Shown piece by piece: positions 30,435-52,700 of a stretch of DNA of 64,000 nucleotides (within the stretch, counting starts at the first letter, position 1; every line of letters starts with the position of its first letter). The translations under genes were made by a program, and so were the position numbers. The notes under the pieces were generated by a model. The model did not search any database, was not told where the DNA came from, and saw nothing but the letters and a program-made list of their open reading frames with translations. The stretch comes from Escherichia coli (GTDB lineage Bacteria; Pseudomonadota; Gammaproteobacteria; Enterobacterales; Enterobacteriaceae). The DNA lies in the NCBI RefSeq assembly GCF_030013205.1, contig NZ_CP122648.1; one strand, 5' to 3'.

Positions 30435-31549
30435 GCCTGTTTATCCTCATTGCCTGGCTGATGTTCGGTTTCTGTAGGTTGCTGGTTATGACGTCTGCGC
30501 TGGTCAACGGCGCTGGCGACTGCGTGCACACCAACAGCCGCTGCCACCACGCCAAGCGCGGTTAAACCGACGGTGTCGGCGGTGGAATGAGTTCCCATTT
30601 GCGGAATATCGACCACGCGACTGTAGAACGAACCGCGATCCCAGAAACCATTTTCCGCACAGCCCAGGCAGCCGTGACCAGACTGGATTGGGAAAGAAAC
30701 GCCATCATTCCAGCGTGTGGAGGAACAGGCGTTATAGGTGGTAGGCCCTTTGCAGCCCATTTTGTACAGGCAGTAACCTTTGCGGGCAGCGTCATCATCC
30801 CAACTCTGCACGAACTCTCCGGCGTCGAAGTGGGCGCGGCGATAGCATTTATCGTGGATTCGCTGACCATAGAACATCAACGGACGGCCCATTCTGTCGA
30901 CATCTGGCAAGCGATCAAAGGTCACCATGTAAGTAATGATGGCGCTCATCACATCCGGGATCGGCGGGCAGCCAGGTACTTTGATAATAGGTTTGTCGGT
31001 GATGACTTTGTCGATAGGCGTTGCCTGCGTCGGATTGGGTCGCGCGGCCTGCACGCAGCCCCAGGACGCGCAGGTTCCCCAGGCGATAATCGCACTGGCT
31101 CCGGCAGCAGCACGTTTGAGTTTCTCAATAAACGGTCGTCCGCTGCTGATACAGAACATCCCCTGCTCGCCCAGCGGCGGATTACCTTCTACTGCGAGGA
31201 TATATTTGCCATTGTATTGCGTGATGATGTCTTCAAAGACTTCTTCCGCCTGGGTTCCGGCGGCAGCCATCAAAGTATCGTCATAATCGAGGGAAATCAG
31301 GGAAAGGATGACGTCCTTCGCCAGTGGGTGAGCGGAGCGGATAAAAGATTCGGTACAGCAGGTGCATTCCAGACCGTGGATCCATACCACCGGAATGCGC
31401 GGTTTGTTCTCCAGCGCCCAGGCAATCTTTGGTGCCATTCCCGCGCCTAATCCCAGCGACGTGGCAGCCAGACTACAATATTTGAGAAAGCTGCGCCGGG
31501 TAACGCCCTGACGCCGCATGGCCTGGTAAAATGTTTCCTCGTTATTCAT
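30431..31549 (-). CDS. hyaA: HyaA [NiFe] hydrogenase-1 small subunit
   Basis: [29 protein letters not shown]at signal; 372 aa. Confidence 0.95.
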
Positions 31550-31975
31550 ATCGCACGTCTCTTCTCCTTGCGACACCGGCAGGACACCGGGCGCACATGG
31601 TCGGCAAGCGACGTCCCTGTAGCAAGGCAAACCATCGCTTCACGTGAGATGCTGAAAACGAAAGCTCATCCTTCTGCACTGGCGCACGTCGCCAGAAAGT
31701 AATGTTAATAAAGCGTAGTGAAACTTTTGCACAAAACAATACAAACTGTGTGGATTTATCTTTTAGCGATAAAAATGGACCTATTTTTCTTTTTGCCGGG
31801 CGGTGGGGATGTTTAGCCAGTTGCTAAACGAGTAAAAGAGAAGGAATTCATGGTGATGAAATGATCAATCTGCTGTTATTTCACGCTATCAATGCACTTT
31901 TGGCTGTTTTTCAGGCAAACAAACAAATTAGGGGTTTACACGCCGCATCGGGATGTTTATAGTGCGCGTCATTCC

Positions 31976-32063
31976 GGAAGTGTGGCCGAGCGGTTGAAGG
32001 CACCGGTCTTGAAAACCGGCGACCCGAAAGGGTTCCAGAGTTCGAATCTCTGCGCTTCCGCCA
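31976..32063 (+). tRNA. serT: tRNA-Ser (anticodon UGA)
   Basis: GGAAGTGTGGCCGAGCGGTTGAAGGCACCGGTCTTGAAAACCGG...CGCTTCCGCCA, long variable arm, CCA encoded; 3' half lies in prophage att core. Confidence 0.95.
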
Positions 32064-32071
32064 AATAATCA
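32004..32071. repeat. Prophage att core copy, serT 3' half (attL)
   Basis: 68-bp identical to 52435-52502. Confidence 0.85.
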
Positions 32072-32105
32072 AGGGGTTACCAAATGGTAACCCCTTTGCT
32101 TTTTG
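32072..32105 (+). terminator. Intrinsic terminator after serT, supplied by prophage-side DNA
   Basis: Stem AGGGGTTACC / GGTAACCCCT followed by T-run. Confidence 0.7.
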
Positions 32106-32107
32106 GG

Positions 32108-32140
32108 CTCTTGGTATAAACTTGGTATACCAATTGGTAT
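32108..32140. promoter_or_regulatory. Three direct repeats TTGGTATA, candidate integrase arm-type sites
   Basis: CTTGGTATAAACTTGGTATACCAATTGGTATA next to attL; the same octamer recurs near attR at about 52321. Confidence 0.4.
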
Positions 32141-32326
32141 ATTTTCTGCCAAAAAATTCCTAAAATCCCCTCCAGCACAAACAATCACTTGCTCATTCAT
32201 ACTTTATCAAGAAAATATCCTTGCAAGTTATGTTGTTTCTTTCTGCGTCCCGACAGGGTGTCATGGTTCCCCACTTCTCTCGGGATGGACACTTAACGGA
32301 CGAGAAATTTTCAGGTGTCATTCAGA

Positions 32327-32365
32327 CGCGCTTCGGCCCCGGATTGGCGAAGCGCGCTTTTTTTC
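32327..32365 (+). terminator. Strong intrinsic terminator inside prophage end
   Basis: Stem CGCGCTTCG(GCC) / (GGC)CGAAGCGCG followed by TTTTTTT. Confidence 0.6.
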
Positions 32366-32511
32366 TCAGATTATTTCGTTTTGCCTGAGTGTTGAATAAC
32401 GCCACTACAGTTATATAAGCTGGAAATCATTCAATACTCGCACTATCGAAAGTTCACCAGCCAACCGCAGCACGTACTGCATACGTCGTGTCTGCGGTTT
32501 TTCTTTTTCAC

Positions 32512-32878
32512 TTACATTGTGTCTGGTTCTTCCGGCCACACAATATCCGGTGCTACTGATGTATCAACACGGTTCAGCAACACCCGATACTTTTTCCAGG
32601 CTTCCAGCAACGAGTTTTCTTCCTCCGTTGCGATCTCCAGATCTACAGCATCCTGAAGTGGCGCAATATGCTCACTGGCTACCTGCATCAGGCTGTTTTT
32701 TGTTTCTTCCGCCTCCCGGATCCGGAACAGTTTTTCTGCTTCTGCATCTTTCACCCAGGCTGTGCCGTTCCACTTCTGAAACTCCCCTTCCGGCGATAAC
32801 CAGGTAACATTTTCCGGTAACGGACCGAGTTCAGAAATAAATAACGCGTCCCCTGACGCTACGTCATAAACCGTTTTG
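32512..32878 (-). pseudogene. Tail fibre assembly protein (Tfa) C-terminal remnant
   Basis: ...[57 protein letters not shown]...[18 protein letters not shown] matches recalled Tfa family; N-terminus missing, fused at a deletion to stf remnant. Confidence 0.75.
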
Positions 32879-33710
32879 CAGATTTGTCAAAAGTCTGCCC
32901 CTGCATCAGGGCATAACCAGACGGAACGGTATTTGATGGCCACGGGATTGGTGCACCGACTGGGTAGCTTTCTGGTGGAAGATTTTTCGAGGTATAAACT
33001 TCTGCCCAGTCTTCCTCAAAACCATAACCGTCTCTTGAAGAACGGTAGAACAGACCACCATTTCTGTAATGCGCCTTCATCTGCAGGGTCCGGCAACTTC
33101 CGACTCCGGTATAGAAGTTAACCAGAATATAGCTGTTGCCTGTCCGGGTGACATTGTATGCACCAGATTTAGCATTCCACGGAACGCCTCCCTCTGACTC
33201 TGCGTGCACACCAGACGATCCAAGAGCAAAAGCAGAGACATCTGCAGCGGACAGCCTGATGTCTGATTTCAATGCCTTACCATTCACCTTACGACCAGAT
33301 GGAACCCGGTCATTTGCATTATCATTCACCGCTTTCACCGCCATTGGTGTTGCCGCCAGCGATTCACTGTCACTGTCCGTGGCACTGCTGAGCTGTACCA
33401 CCCCCTTTCTCGTCGTGCTCGCATCCTCTAGCGCCACGGCAGATGCAATATCCTCTGCCCGTTTTGCTGCTGTCTCGGCACGCGTTGCTGCAGATTCCGA
33501 CGTACTTTTGCTCTGAGCTGCCGCTGTCGCACTACCAGCTGCCTCTGTCGCCTTCGTGGATGCCGTCGTGGCACTGACCTTCGCCTCTGACGCCTGTCTT
33601 ACCGCCTCATCTTTTGAAGCAGACGCCGATGATGCTGATGACGCCGCCGAACTGGCGGACGATGCGGCTGCCGTTTCTGAGGCTCCTGCGCGGGTTGCCA
33701 CTTCCGTCAA
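32859..33710 (-). pseudogene. Side tail fibre (Stf) remnant
   Basis: Ala/Ser-rich repeat region then ...[16 protein letters not shown], after which the frame diverges into the tfa remnant. Confidence 0.65.
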
Positions 33711-34582
33711 CCAGGCTTATCAGCGTGGTGCCGGAGGATGGCAGCGTGATTTCACGGTCGAGCGTCAGCGTCCGGGTCTGGCTGTTCACCGCCAGCACGC
33801 GCCCGCCGGTGCTGATACCGGCATAGTCATCATCGCAGATTTCAATGACATCGCCCGGTACATGGCGAAGCCCTTCGGCACCCACGCTGAAGTCCACGGT
33901 CTGCGTTTCCAGCAGTTCTGTTTTAATCAGCCACAGCCCGGCGCGGTGCGCCTGCCCCCGGCTGGTACAGCCAAACGCATCCATCTTCGTGACGTTACGA
34001 CCGTAACGGGCAATGGCCTGCGAGTCCTCCACAAGCTCTGTCGCCGTCTCCTGGCCGTTATCCGGGTCAATCCAGTTCACTTCAACGGCATTATGGCGGT
34101 CTTTCAGGGCGCTGAAGCTGTAGCGGAATGGTGCGCCATCATCCGGCATCACCACATTACTGCGGTTATAGGTCCACACCTTATCCGACGGTCGGTCCTG
34201 CACGAACGTCAGCGTCTGCCCGTTCCATACCGGCATACAGCGCATCGCCGAGCAGAAATCACTGAGCACATCCCAGGCCTTGCGCTGTGTGGTCAGGTAC
34301 GCATTACAGGCGATGCGCGGCTCCGTGCCGCCAAAGCCGTCCGGCACCGACTGGTCGCAGTACTGGCCGATGACATACAGCGCCCATTTGTCCACATCCG
34401 CCGCACCAAGACGTTTCACTGTCCAGCACCGGCGTACTGTTCAGCAGCACGCTTTTTAATCCCTCCACCGGACCTTCTATCGGCCCTTCGCTGATGGCAT
34501 CAATCACACTCAGCAACTGCGTGGATTTCAGATTGTCCTTCGCTTCTCGCGGGGTATGCCCCTTACTGCTGCCTTTACCCAT
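33607..34582 (-). pseudogene. Lambda J-like tail tip protein remnant, frameshifted and internally deleted
   Basis: N-terminal ORF MGKGSSKGHTPREAKDNLKSTQLLSVIDAISEGPIEGPVEGLKSVLLNST as recalled for lambda J, then a second overlapping frame; about 330 aa in total versus over 1100 aa for intact J. Confidence 0.7.
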
Positions 34583-34642
34583 TCGTCATGCTCCATAAAC
34601 GACAAAACCGCCCGCAGGCGGTTTCACATAAAACATGTTGTA

Positions 34643-35140
34643 TCAGCGACCAATCACCACAACCTGACCACCATCCCCTTCGTCTGCCGTGCTGATCTCC
34701 TGAGAAACCACCCGCGACCCCACGCGCATTTCACCGTACAGAACGGGCAGAACATTGCCCTGGGCAACCATGTTATCCAGTGAGGAGAAATACGTATTCT
34801 GTTTGCCGTTATCCGTTGTCTGTGTACGGGGGGTTCTGGGTTTAGGGGCCAGCATCTGTGCAACACCGCCAAGCGTCATACTGGCACCGAGAGAAAACAG
34901 CAGATTGCTCGCCATAATTCCTACCCCCGGCATCCATATAGCAACCGCCATAACAGCAGCGCCCAGCACAGCCTGAAACACTCCGCCACTTTTAGCCCCA
35001 GCCAGACGCGGCACGATGTGGATCACGGCACCATTCGCCAGCGGTTCATTAAGACGGGCTGATAATTCTGTTTCACCGGCATCATGCCCGGCAATGCGTA
35101 CCTGATACCAGCGATGCGATATCCTGCTGGTGGATGAATG
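34643..35140 (-). pseudogene. Lambda I-like tail assembly protein, N-terminally truncated
   Basis: ...WYQVRIAG...GAVIHIVPRLAGAKSGGVFQAVLGAA...EISTADEGDGGQVVVIGR matches recalled gpI C-terminal two-thirds; in-frame stop upstream near 35150. Confidence 0.7.
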
Positions 35141-35447
35141 AGAGAATCTTCACCGACACCACCGATACCAGTACCGCACAAAGCGCGTCGAGAGATGTGC
35201 TGTGGAGATTCAATTTTTCGACCAGCCAGGACGCAAGGACATCCGCCCCCAGCACGCCAACAATGAACGACACCAGAAAATGCGCCGCCACACGCCAGAC
35301 AGAAATCACCTGTGGCATCGTGGCCACAAACAACGCCCCGGCAAACGCGCCAAACACAATCCCGAAATCCGTCCCGGTAAACAGCCCGAATACCGTCGCC
35401 CCGCCGAGCGCCACAGCAGTGCTGGAACCGGATAAGGGTTCAGACAT
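35082..35447 (-). CDS. Hypothetical multi-TM membrane protein (holin-like), 3' end overlapping I remnant
   Basis: MSEPLSGSSTAVALGGATVFGLFTG... three to four hydrophobic segments; no recognisable K motifs. Confidence 0.35.
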   Translation of the reverse strand: MSEPLSGSSTAVALGGATVFGLFTGTDFGIVFGAFAGALFVATMPQVISVWRVAAHFLVSFIVGVLGADVLASWLVEKLNLHSTSLDALCAVLVSVVSVKILSFIHQQDIASLVSGTHCRA

Positions 35448-35646
35448 ATTTATTCTCCTGTAAATAAAAAGGACCATCAGCGGCCCCGTAACTGACATTT
35501 TATTAACGTTTGAAGATATGGATATTTATCAGGGTTTACCGTTTTCTGAACCCTGGATATGTTAAGCATTCAGCCGGCCAGTGGTGGGACGCTGGCTCAT
35601 CATAGAGAAAGAGGGATGGCTGATTACCTCTGATCAGGGAAATCAC

Positions 35647-35916
35647 ATGCAGTTTTTACATAAAAGAATGCATTTAAATGCAGGAGATACGGTAGTGGTT
35701 GACTGCTCTCATCAGTGCAATATTTTGCTGATGACAGATACAAACTTTAATAACTACCGCAACGCAAGAAGCTTTCATCATCACGGTGGTGGCGGTTTTT
35801 TTCAGAGATTACCGGCCCACCTTCATGTACCGCATTCAGGTTACTGGAATATTACAATTGATTTAGGAGGCGGAAGTGCAGCTATTCGGCACTCCATTTC
35901 CGTCATCCCAGCATAG
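35647..35916 (+). CDS. Hypothetical protein
   Basis: MQFLHKRMHLNAGDTVVVDCSHQCN...HHHGGGG...; ORF followed by hairpin at about 35952-35983. Confidence 0.4.
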   Translation: MQFLHKRMHLNAGDTVVVDCSHQCNILLMTDTNFNNYRNARSFHHHGGGGFFQRLPAHLHVPHSGYWNITIDLGGGSAAIRHSISVIPA

Positions 35917-36227
35917 CAACTCGCCTTTAGCCTGAGTAAATGCGTCCTCAAGGACGGCAACGAGTCGCAGTTGCGTGCCGTCCTTTACACAGCGTGTGCA
36001 GGCAATACCTTCAGAACTTTCATTATGCCGAGCTCATACAATTTCACCATTTTGTTCAACTACAACGCTCATAATTTTCTTACACTTTTTTAATAAACCA
36101 CACCAATAACAACCATCACCGATACCTTTTGTATGCTGTTATTTTGCATTACGGTGTAACGGCAAGAGCCCCCTCCCCGCCCTGAAAGGCTCTGTGTTTT
36201 TGATGTGCGCCTGATGTGGCTCAGATA

Positions 36228-36251
36228 CAAAAAAGCTCGCAGTAGCGAGCT
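36228..36251 (-). terminator. Intrinsic terminator for the 36275-36553 gene
   Basis: Stem AGCTCGC / GCGAGCT with A-run on plus strand (T-run on minus) just below the stop. Confidence 0.6.
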
Positions 36252-36274
36252 AACAGAAAATATGAAGCATGTTT

Positions 36275-45702: not shown

Positions 45703-45736
45703 TAAAATTTCCTCCCGGTAAAAATTACTTCTCAAC

Positions 45737-46402
45737 TCAAACAAAACCAGCCGCTTTCCGGCGTTCATATTCCTGTTTCAGCAACTCAATTGGCGTTGGT
45801 CCCGACGGGTGTTTGGGTGCCGCCAGTTGTCGCCGGACTGGCGGAATGCTCAGGCCATTACCAACATGCTTTGCCCATTTCGTCAGTTGCCATTCTGCAA
45901 GCCGTTTTAACTCCCCTTCGGTCATCTGGCGCTCAATCCCCTTTGAACGCATCTCGAGGCAAATGTGATACAGCACAGGCTGAGACCACGGGTACTTATC
46001 ACTTCCGTCGTATCGCCAGGACTCATTGCGCCAGCGGCGGTACTCCTCCATCACAGCATCCACCGTCAGACCAAATGGATTGGCTCCGCTTTCCGAAATC
46101 AGCGCCACAAACTCAGCCAGGTCCGGAGGCCATGTTTCACCCGCCCGGCAGCGGTCCATGCACTGGCGGCAGACCTGCCGGATTTGCTGCTCAGTCATCG
46201 CGCCAATCTGTGCAATCCAGAGCTTCGAAGGTGCGGCCCCGTTCTTCTGGGTCCAGCGGTTCGAATAAACCTCCCCCATGAGTTCCCACAGCTTCCAGGC
46301 CGTTTCCGTCGCTGATAAATCCGTTTTCACGTTCCCACTGCTCACGTGCTGCCCGAATTTCCTGAACTGCTCGTGATGCGGTGCCACCTGGTGCTGCTGC
46401 AT
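45737..46402 (-). CDS. Lambda P-like replication protein (helicase loader)
   Basis: C-terminal half resembles recalled lambda P (DKYPWSQPVLYHICLEM..., ...ELLKQEYERRKAAG); N-terminal extent uncertain because the ORF overlaps the upstream gene. Confidence 0.5.
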   Translation of the reverse strand: MQQHQVAPHHEQFRKFGQHVSSGNVKTDLSATETAWKLWELMGEVYSNRWTQKNGAAPSKLWIAQIGAMTEQQIRQVCRQCMDRCRAGETWPPDLAEFVALISESGANPFGLTVDAVMEEYRRWRNESWRYDGSDKYPWSQPVLYHICLEMRSKGIERQMTEGELKRLAEWQLTKWAKHVGNGLSIPPVRRQLAAPKHPSGPTPIELLKQEYERRKAAGFV

Positions 46403-46652
46403 GGTTTACCCCCTTGCTGACTGGTTTAACCTGCGCCCTGACGTGATTTACGTGACGGGCGAATTTCTGCTCCCACTGAATCTGCGTGAACACTTTCCCC
46501 TCCGCTGCCCAGTAGTCCCGGAAGGCTGCAAATTCAGCTGGTGTAAATTCCGGCTCAGGCAGAGCCACTCCCCACAGAGCAGCCCGTCGTCGAAAATCCG
46601 GCGACGGATGCCAGCCATCGGTCATCGGAAATTTCCCGATGGGTTCGCTCAT
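46191..46652 (-). CDS. DnaT-domain-like replication protein, apparently N-terminally truncated
   Basis: KFPMTDGWHPSPDFRRRAALWGVALPEP...; starts with this segment directly and overlaps the P-like ORF in another frame. Confidence 0.45.
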   Translation of the reverse strand: MSEPIGKFPMTDGWHPSPDFRRRAALWGVALPEPEFTPAEFAAFRDYWAAEGKVFTQIQWEQKFARHVNHVRAQVKPVSKGVNHAAAPGGTASRAVQEIRAAREQWERENGFISDGNGLEAVGTHGGGLFEPLDPEERGRTFEALDCTDWRDD

Positions 46653-46691
46653 GCCGTCCAGATAAGCGAAGCAGCACCGCGAGGAATCAGT

Positions 46692-52434: not shown

Positions 52435-52502
52435 CGGTCTTGAAAACCGGCGACCCGAAAGGGTTCCAGAGTTCGAATCTCTGCGCTTCCGCCAAATAAG
52501 AT
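52435..52502. repeat. Prophage att core copy (attR), partial serT 3' half
   Basis: 68-bp identical to 32004-32071, followed by a hairpin terminator AGGGGTTAG...CTAACCCCT + T-run. Confidence 0.85.
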
Positions 52503-52700
52503 AAGGGGTTAGCTAACTGCTAACCCCTTTTTCTTTTGCCTGTCGAAATTCTCAGGGCGTTATATTTGCTTAATGACCTGATAATCCGCTGTTAAACCTG
52601 TTCCAGATCAAATGCGTAAAGATGGGTAAAACTTCTGGGTGCCCTTACGCATTATCATTATGCTGCTTAATTAATTACATCTGTCATAGAGAGTGACTCA

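Follow-up and report, generated by a model that had tools for sequence, protein, structure and literature searches.

Out-of-frame fragments of lambdoid tail genes at the probable right end of a decayed serT prophage in Escherichia coli

Incomplete prophages preferentially lose the genes for packaging, replication, and release and retain tail fibre genes (PMC7744054). The cryptic prophages Qin, Rac, e14, and DLP12 of Escherichia coli K-12 are defective lambdoid elements in which the morphogenesis block has been deleted, late-regulatory and some accessory genes have been kept, and fragments of I, J, stf, and tfa lie beside the attachment site. In a stretch of 64,000 nucleotides (nt) of E. coli DNA (contig NZ_CP122648.1 of RefSeq assembly GCF_030013205.1; hereafter the window), the minus strand between positions 32512 and 35498 carries an object of the same kind, an instance of a process of prophage decay that is already known: a truncated holin gene of the phiP27 type is followed, in canonical lambda order, by a piece of I, two pieces of J, and one piece each of stf and tfa. 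This region is very probably the right end of a defective lambdoid prophage of ~20.4 kb beside the tRNA gene serT, a dead end that in all likelihood lost ~22 kb through four non-homologous deletions. Its content agrees with the general pattern of loss and retention reported in the survey cited above. It differs from the K-12 elements in its location at serT and in its breakpoints, and it has a phiP27-type holin where Qin has an essQ-type lysis gene; moreover, its fragments have barely diverged from their intact relatives (99.4–100% identity), so its decay is young. In the Qin-type prophage of CFSAN061772 (locus L011, positions 4023–5792), an I gene missing its N-terminus, a truncated J, and tfaQ stand in the same order, followed by pinQ, which illustrates that the same pattern of decay recurs in unrelated lambdoid remnants.

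The limits of the element are marked by a 103-nt attachment (att) repeat with 91% identity, whose copies at 32004–32103 and 52435–52537, detected by a blast self-comparison through the locus of the near-identical record K_EC180, are its two ends. The far copy adjoins an integrase, which the annotation of K_EC180 gives as a pseudogene. The repeat thus places the tail-gene region at the right-hand end of a defective serT prophage of ~20.4 kb. The chromosomal anchor is the serT gene itself, encoding tRNA-Ser (UGA) at 31976–32063 on the plus strand (ARAGORN; annotation of K_EC180).

Comparison of the window by blastn with the prophages of ETEC1738, PEC41, and WY517-2 (94–100% identity) yielded four collinear blocks in one orientation, and their residue ranges were confirmed by protein-level blast; all pieces have kept their original order and orientation. 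The prophage of ETEC1738 (from swine) is lambdoid, occupies the same serT site, and carries full-length K, I (180 residues), J (1165 residues), lom, stf (826 residues), and tfa (194 residues) in this canonical order. That of PEC41 (also from swine) lies at another site and is complete; its genes run from methyltransferase and tRNAs through holin, second holin, endolysin, and terminase to the head and tail genes, I, J, lom, and stf. The intact prophage of WY517-2 (from a human) is 96.6% identical to the window over 10.2 kb of the early and late-regulatory region, from Q through the methyltransferase and DUF1883 genes to the holin. Beyond its holin lie another holin gene, genes for a GH108 endolysin, terminase, portal, head, and tail, and then K, I, and J; it contains the counterparts of the holin, the I piece, and both J pieces collinearly. 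ETEC1738 and WY517-2 keep full-length I, J, lom, stf, and tfa and the entire block for head, tail, and lysis, whereas the window keeps only fragments. Strain 0-4 was usable as a reference but was replaced by these three, as its identity to the window was only 88–96% and its stf is truncated.

The affiliation of the blocks is not uniform. The block at 31900–32877, which comprises serT, att, and residues 74–194 of Tfa, and the block at 32877–33696, which comprises residues 370–642 of Stf, are both closest to ETEC1738 (99.9%). The block at 33697–34417 (J residues 289–530) is closest to PEC41 (99.4%, against 95.9% for ETEC1738), as is the block at 34416–35112 (100%), which comprises J residues 1–56, the spacer between I and J, and I residues ~26–180; the identity of ETEC1738 J to the pieces in the window is 94–96%.

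Each fragment aligns inside a full-length gene of an intact prophage, with a nucleotide identity of 94–100% over 366–820 bp that is far above chance. The tfa fragment (32512–32877, minus strand, as are all of the following) encodes the C-terminal 121 codons of Tfa without a start codon (residues 74–194 of 194). It matches Caudo_TAP in Pfam (E = 4e-44) and is identical in amino acid sequence to the corresponding part of ETEC1738 Tfa; its block is 99.9% identical in nucleotide sequence (L008, 10249–11226). The stf fragment (32878–33696) is an internal piece (residues 370–642 of 826) with matches to Phage_fiber_2, gp37_C, and part of Collar (profile positions 1–27 of 57); its identity to ETEC1738 is 99.9% in nucleotides (L008, 12000–12819) and 99.6% in amino acids.

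The tail-tip gene J is represented by two pieces. J-mid (33697–34417) is internal, covering residues 289–530 of 1165 (242 residues), and matches the J domain Phage-tail_3 (E = 8e-42); its nucleotide identity is that given for its block. J-N (34418–34582) consists of the J start codon and residues 1–55/56 and is 100% identical in amino acid sequence to residues 1–56 of PEC41 J. The I fragment (34643–35112) is a tail assembly gene without its first ~25 codons (residues ~26–180 of 180); it matches Lambda_tail_I at profile positions 46–83 of 83 only and is 100% identical in nucleotide sequence to PEC41 (L007, 11999–12695). The native spacer between I and J (34583–34642) is still in place, and lom is wholly absent. 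Although the family domains of I, J, Stf, and Tfa are all represented, none of the fragments is a complete gene with its own start and stop.

The four boundaries between the fragments were placed to the base by three-way alignments of the window with two parental-type references, which are proxies for the parental sequences and not the true ancestor. Junction 1 (tfa/stf, 32877/32878) lacks 774 bp relative to ETEC1738, namely Tfa residues 1–73 and Stf residues 643–826, with an overlap of 1 nt (T). Junction 2 (stf/J-mid, 33696/33697) lacks 3,753 bp relative to ETEC1738, comprising Stf residues 1–369, all of lom, and J residues 531–1165; the overlap is TT, with 5 of 6 positions matching if it is extended. 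Junction 3 (J-mid/J-N, 34417/34418) lacks 698 bp (J residues 57–288), with an overlap of TC. Junction 4 (I/holin, 35104–35112), for which the I portion was aligned with PEC41 and ETEC1738 and the holin portion with ETEC4073, lacks ~17 kb, comprising the second holin gene, the genes for endolysin, terminase, portal, and head, the tail genes as far as K, and the 5' end of I. Its loss was sized from the collinear positions 2851 and 20048 of WY517-2 (L012; 17.2 kb), and likewise from PEC41. ETEC1738 was unsuitable for this purpose because a P2-like prophage interrupts its otherwise intact serT prophage just past the small terminase gene. The inserted P2-like prophage is complete (L009, 10010–41233), and the large terminase gene of ETEC1738 contains an internal stop.

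The preliminary description of the locus, prepared from the sequence alone, had counted at least three precisely located junctions and proposed a search for microhomology at each; the precision holds, with four junctions instead of three, and the search was positive at one of them. Junction 4 lies in a perfect 9-nt microhomology, GATACCAGC, which extends to 11 of 12 positions over 35101–35112. In 400,000 simulated random deletions on two reference loci, overlaps of at least 9 nt arose with a probability of 7–8e-5, compared with 0.16 for at least 2 nt and 0.44 for at least 1 nt. Because overlaps of 1–2 nt are expected of random junctions, only junction 4 carries a signature of microhomology beyond chance; with overlaps of 1, 2, and 2 nt, junctions 1–3 resemble random or blunt illegitimate joins.

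These features suggest the following course. The ancestor would have had its late genes in the order holin, second holin, endolysin, terminase, head, tail through K, I, J, lom, stf, and tfa, followed by the attachment site. The largest deletion, from the 3' end of the holin gene to approximately codon 25 of I, would have joined two copies of the 9-nt sequence, as is characteristic of a microhomology-mediated deletion (slipped-strand, RecA-independent); slippage or recombination at this site is our inference from the join. The three smaller deletions in J, lom, stf, and tfa were probably plain illegitimate joins. Literature searches on the part played by microhomology in the decay of prophages, and on the occurrence of this serT prophage among O139 strains, returned nothing specific; only the general survey cited at the outset was relevant.

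A six-frame walk, in which the phase is the coordinate of the top of the codon modulo 3 on the minus strand, gave phases of 2 for the holin, 1 for the I fragment, 1 for J-N, 0 for J-mid, 2 for stf, and 0 for tfa. The frame changes at all four junctions (at junction 3, the loss of 698 bp is 2 modulo 3 and therefore shifts the frame), and each upstream frame stops 5–37 codons past its junction. Because the frame shifts at every join, the region consists of pseudogene fragments and short chimeric open reading frames (ORFs), not of fusion proteins. The heading of the preliminary description had nevertheless spoken of in-frame fusions, which is incompatible with these phases and with its own text, where another frame is mentioned twice. 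Its remaining observations on the ORFs fared better. The I frame is indeed open from 35149, just past a stop at 35150–35152, without a start codon, and overlaps in another frame the hydrophobic ORF that had been likened to a holin, an identification that is supported by a truncated match to Phage_holin_8 (E = 1e-20). The Stf frame, which lies in a chimeric ORF of 283 codons (32859–33710), departs as described after ...TFDKSA and continues for five codons (KRFMT*) into DNA that encodes Tfa residues 74–194 in another frame. The two ORFs of 92 and 270 codons that had been taken to represent J both exist; only residues 1–56 of the former and 242 residues of the latter, however, are J.

The possibility that these ORFs are short but complete genes belonging to another type of tail, which had been named as the finding that would overturn the interpretation as remnants, or that they are functional in-frame fusions, is very improbable. 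It could appeal to the existence of the 270- and 283-residue ORFs and to the Prokaryotic Genome Annotation Pipeline (PGAP), which lists products of 92 and 121 residues as ordinary coding sequences. Yet every ORF consists partly of the interior of a true gene and partly of out-of-frame read-through. The 92-residue ORF (34304–34582, minus strand) combines J residues 1–55/56 with 37 out-of-frame codons. The 270-residue ORF (33607–34419, minus strand) and the 283-residue ORF owe their starts to chance GTG and TTG codons, respectively, at or beyond the junctions. The domains are truncated, none of the four junctions is in frame, and full-length versions of the genes exist in other prophages at 94–100% identity. 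The alignments to ETEC1738, PEC41, WY517-2, and strain 0-4 instead show truncated I, J, stf, and tfa abutting a holin, which supports the originally suspected remnants of a lambda-like tail module.

Public annotation already reflects this state for the most part. In RefSeq, PGAP gives partial pseudogenes for tfa (tail fibre assembly protein, missing its N-terminus), stf (phage tail protein, missing both ends), J (host specificity protein J), and I (tail assembly protein, missing its N-terminus). It also calls two intact coding sequences, WP_149018281.1 (the 92-residue “phage tail protein”) and WP_063085245.1 (the 121-residue “putative holin”), both of which are junction chimeras and not genes, the latter consisting of holin residues 1–116 and five codons of I DNA. 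These two entries should be corrected. As an ordinary example of prophage decay that is already marked as pseudogenes, the locus has little significance beyond annotation bookkeeping, except that it offers a base-resolved case of prophage disarming, apparently through one large microhomology-mediated and three small illegitimate deletions.

The distribution of the junctions was determined with 80-nt probes centred on each of them and run against 5,426 complete E. coli genomes. All four contiguous junctions were recovered from one set of 17 genomes and from no others; the probe for junction 3 matched an 18th record, the Qin-type prophage of CFSAN061772, in two pieces that represent a different junction. 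The same 17 genomes are ~100% identical to the window over 31500–36500; all of them (17/17) come from swine, two with the label O139:H1. The four junction sequences may therefore serve as lineage markers. That the structure is an assembly artefact has a next to negligible probability. The repetitive tail genes of prophages are well known for causing misassembly, but nothing specific points to it here, and independent sequencing of 17 complete genomes, among them those of strains from South Korea and Belgium, gave the identical structure.

Several results nonetheless weigh against a history of four separate deletions in a single ancestral prophage. No genome with only some of the four junctions was found among the 5,426 complete genomes, and the “stepwise” decay of the preliminary description, with the order and number of events that it implies, goes beyond what four always co-occurring junctions allow. 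The fragments differ from their intact relatives by 0–1 substitutions per 700–980 bp; such near-identity implies that all damage is recent, which fits one complex event equally well. Finally, none of the sequenced prophages is by itself the true ancestor: I and J are nearest to the PEC41 type and stf and tfa to the ETEC1738 type, and junction 2 could therefore join two phages.

A single complex event, for instance a series of template switches in the course of replication or of the repair of one break, would explain why the four junctions co-occur without intermediates, why they cluster within 2.3 kb, why the fragments are collinear in one orientation, and why so little time appears to have elapsed. 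We nevertheless regard it as unlikely. The 17 genomes are near-identical in this region and may represent one clone, which makes the missing intermediates weak evidence, and several independent deletions are usual in cryptic prophages, as exemplified by the Qin-type remnant of I, J, and tfaQ described above and by the separate losses of immunity and replication genes in the present prophage.

Illegitimate recombination between a PEC41-like and an ETEC1738-like resident prophage, at junction 2 and perhaps at others, is improbable. The change in affinity across this junction is clear, with J-mid closer to PEC41 (99.4% vs 95.9%) and stf closer to ETEC1738 (99.9% vs 94.9% for PEC41). However, mosaicism around J, lom, and stf is commonplace in lambdoid tail modules, so that an ancestor with such a mixture would be unremarkable; the 7 nt of J at junction 2 (33697–33703) match ETEC1738 and not PEC41, and order and orientation across the junction are canonical. 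Four deletions in one ancestral prophage remain the favoured explanation.

A second serT prophage, that of ETEC4073 (from swine), is 99.8–99.9% identical to the window in its flanks and early region; the match from 35101 onward, comprising the holin and the genes upstream of it, is 99.8%. It carries a single, different deletion that extends from the stop codon of the holin gene into stf, leaving the holin (129 residues) and tfa (194 residues) intact and no fragments of I or J. The junction (L003, 8287–8386) is unique to that genome. The 49 nt of stf that adjoin it show 100% identity to stfR in the Rac prophage of K-12. ETEC4073 was considered as a precursor or descendant of the element in the window and rejected in both roles, as each of the two holds sequence that is missing from the other. 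Deletion alone could not convert either structure into the other, so the morphogenesis block was lost on at least two independent occasions, by deletions whose left end-points are 43 bp apart. It is conceivable, though rather doubtful, that the 3' end of the holin gene is a recurrent deletion end-point, owing either to selection against the downstream genes or to a locally fragile site, or else that the four junctions in the window are the product of one event with multiple template switches.

The holin gene at this end-point (35082–35447, minus strand; the longest ORF starts at 35498) is of the L28 type of phiP27 and retains residues 1–116 of 129. Its match to Phage_holin_8 covers profile positions 1–107 of 121, whereas the orthologue of ETEC4073 spans positions 1–121. 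Comparison of its residues with the holins of ETEC4073, PEC41, phiP27, and phiSTEC1575 showed that the last 13 residues, LFSRLRGGGGNVK, have been replaced by THCRA*, an out-of-frame reading of I DNA, so the product lacks the C-terminal tail of a full-length Phage_holin_8 protein. As a source of close relatives, the phage collection was of no use, as it yielded only distant holins (phiP27 and the Stx2k phage phiSTEC1575, ~85%).

In the Stx2e phage phiP27, the late region comprises a methyltransferase, tRNAs, stx2e, the holins L28 and L29, and an endolysin. The late-regulatory region of the window (35500–38157) follows this arrangement: the DNA methyltransferase and the holin share 84–85% nucleotide identity with their phiP27 counterparts and stand in the same order. 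The differences lie in the missing holin terminus, in the deletion of everything downstream of the holin, and in the place taken by tRNA-Ile, tRNA-Arg, and stx2e in phiP27, which is occupied in the window by a DUF1883 gene and a 92-residue hypothetical gene. No stx genes and no tRNAs were found between methyltransferase and holin in the window.

With a truncated holin, with I, J, Stf, and Tfa all incomplete, and with no gene for endolysin, terminase, head, or tail shaft, the element is predicted to be non-functional. Judged by its gene content, it would be unable to make heads or tails or to lyse its host, and the swine lineage that includes the two O139:H1-labelled genomes would carry a prophage that cannot form particles.

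The left neighbours of the remnant are hyaABCDEF and the tRNA-Ser(UGA) gene; to its right follow a lambdoid early and late-regulatory region and then yccA. The former encodes DNA methyltransferase, Q, RusA, DUF968, ParDE, dicB, exonuclease, and integrase, of which exonuclease and integrase are both frameshifted in the annotated K_EC180 record. Relative to WY517-2 (L012, 30268–33656), most of the immunity and replication block is gone at 45321–46661, where the replisome-organiser gene is truncated and YdaT and the cI- and cro-like genes are missing or replaced. Together with the frameshifted integrase and exonuclease, these losses indicate that decay is not limited to the tail end.

At 38900–38914, the window lacks a copy of the insertion sequence IS1 that is present in K_EC180 (L006, 7005–7766), where it interrupts a hypothetical gene lying between Q and the methyltransferase; the window therefore derives from a different member of the group of 17 genomes. 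Several accessory genes have been kept in apparently intact form: the ParDE pair (at ~42100–42700, a position transferred from K_EC180, L006, 11008–11570), the DNA methyltransferase (37072–38157), dicB, Q, and RusA. Their presence may account for the retention of the rest of the element.

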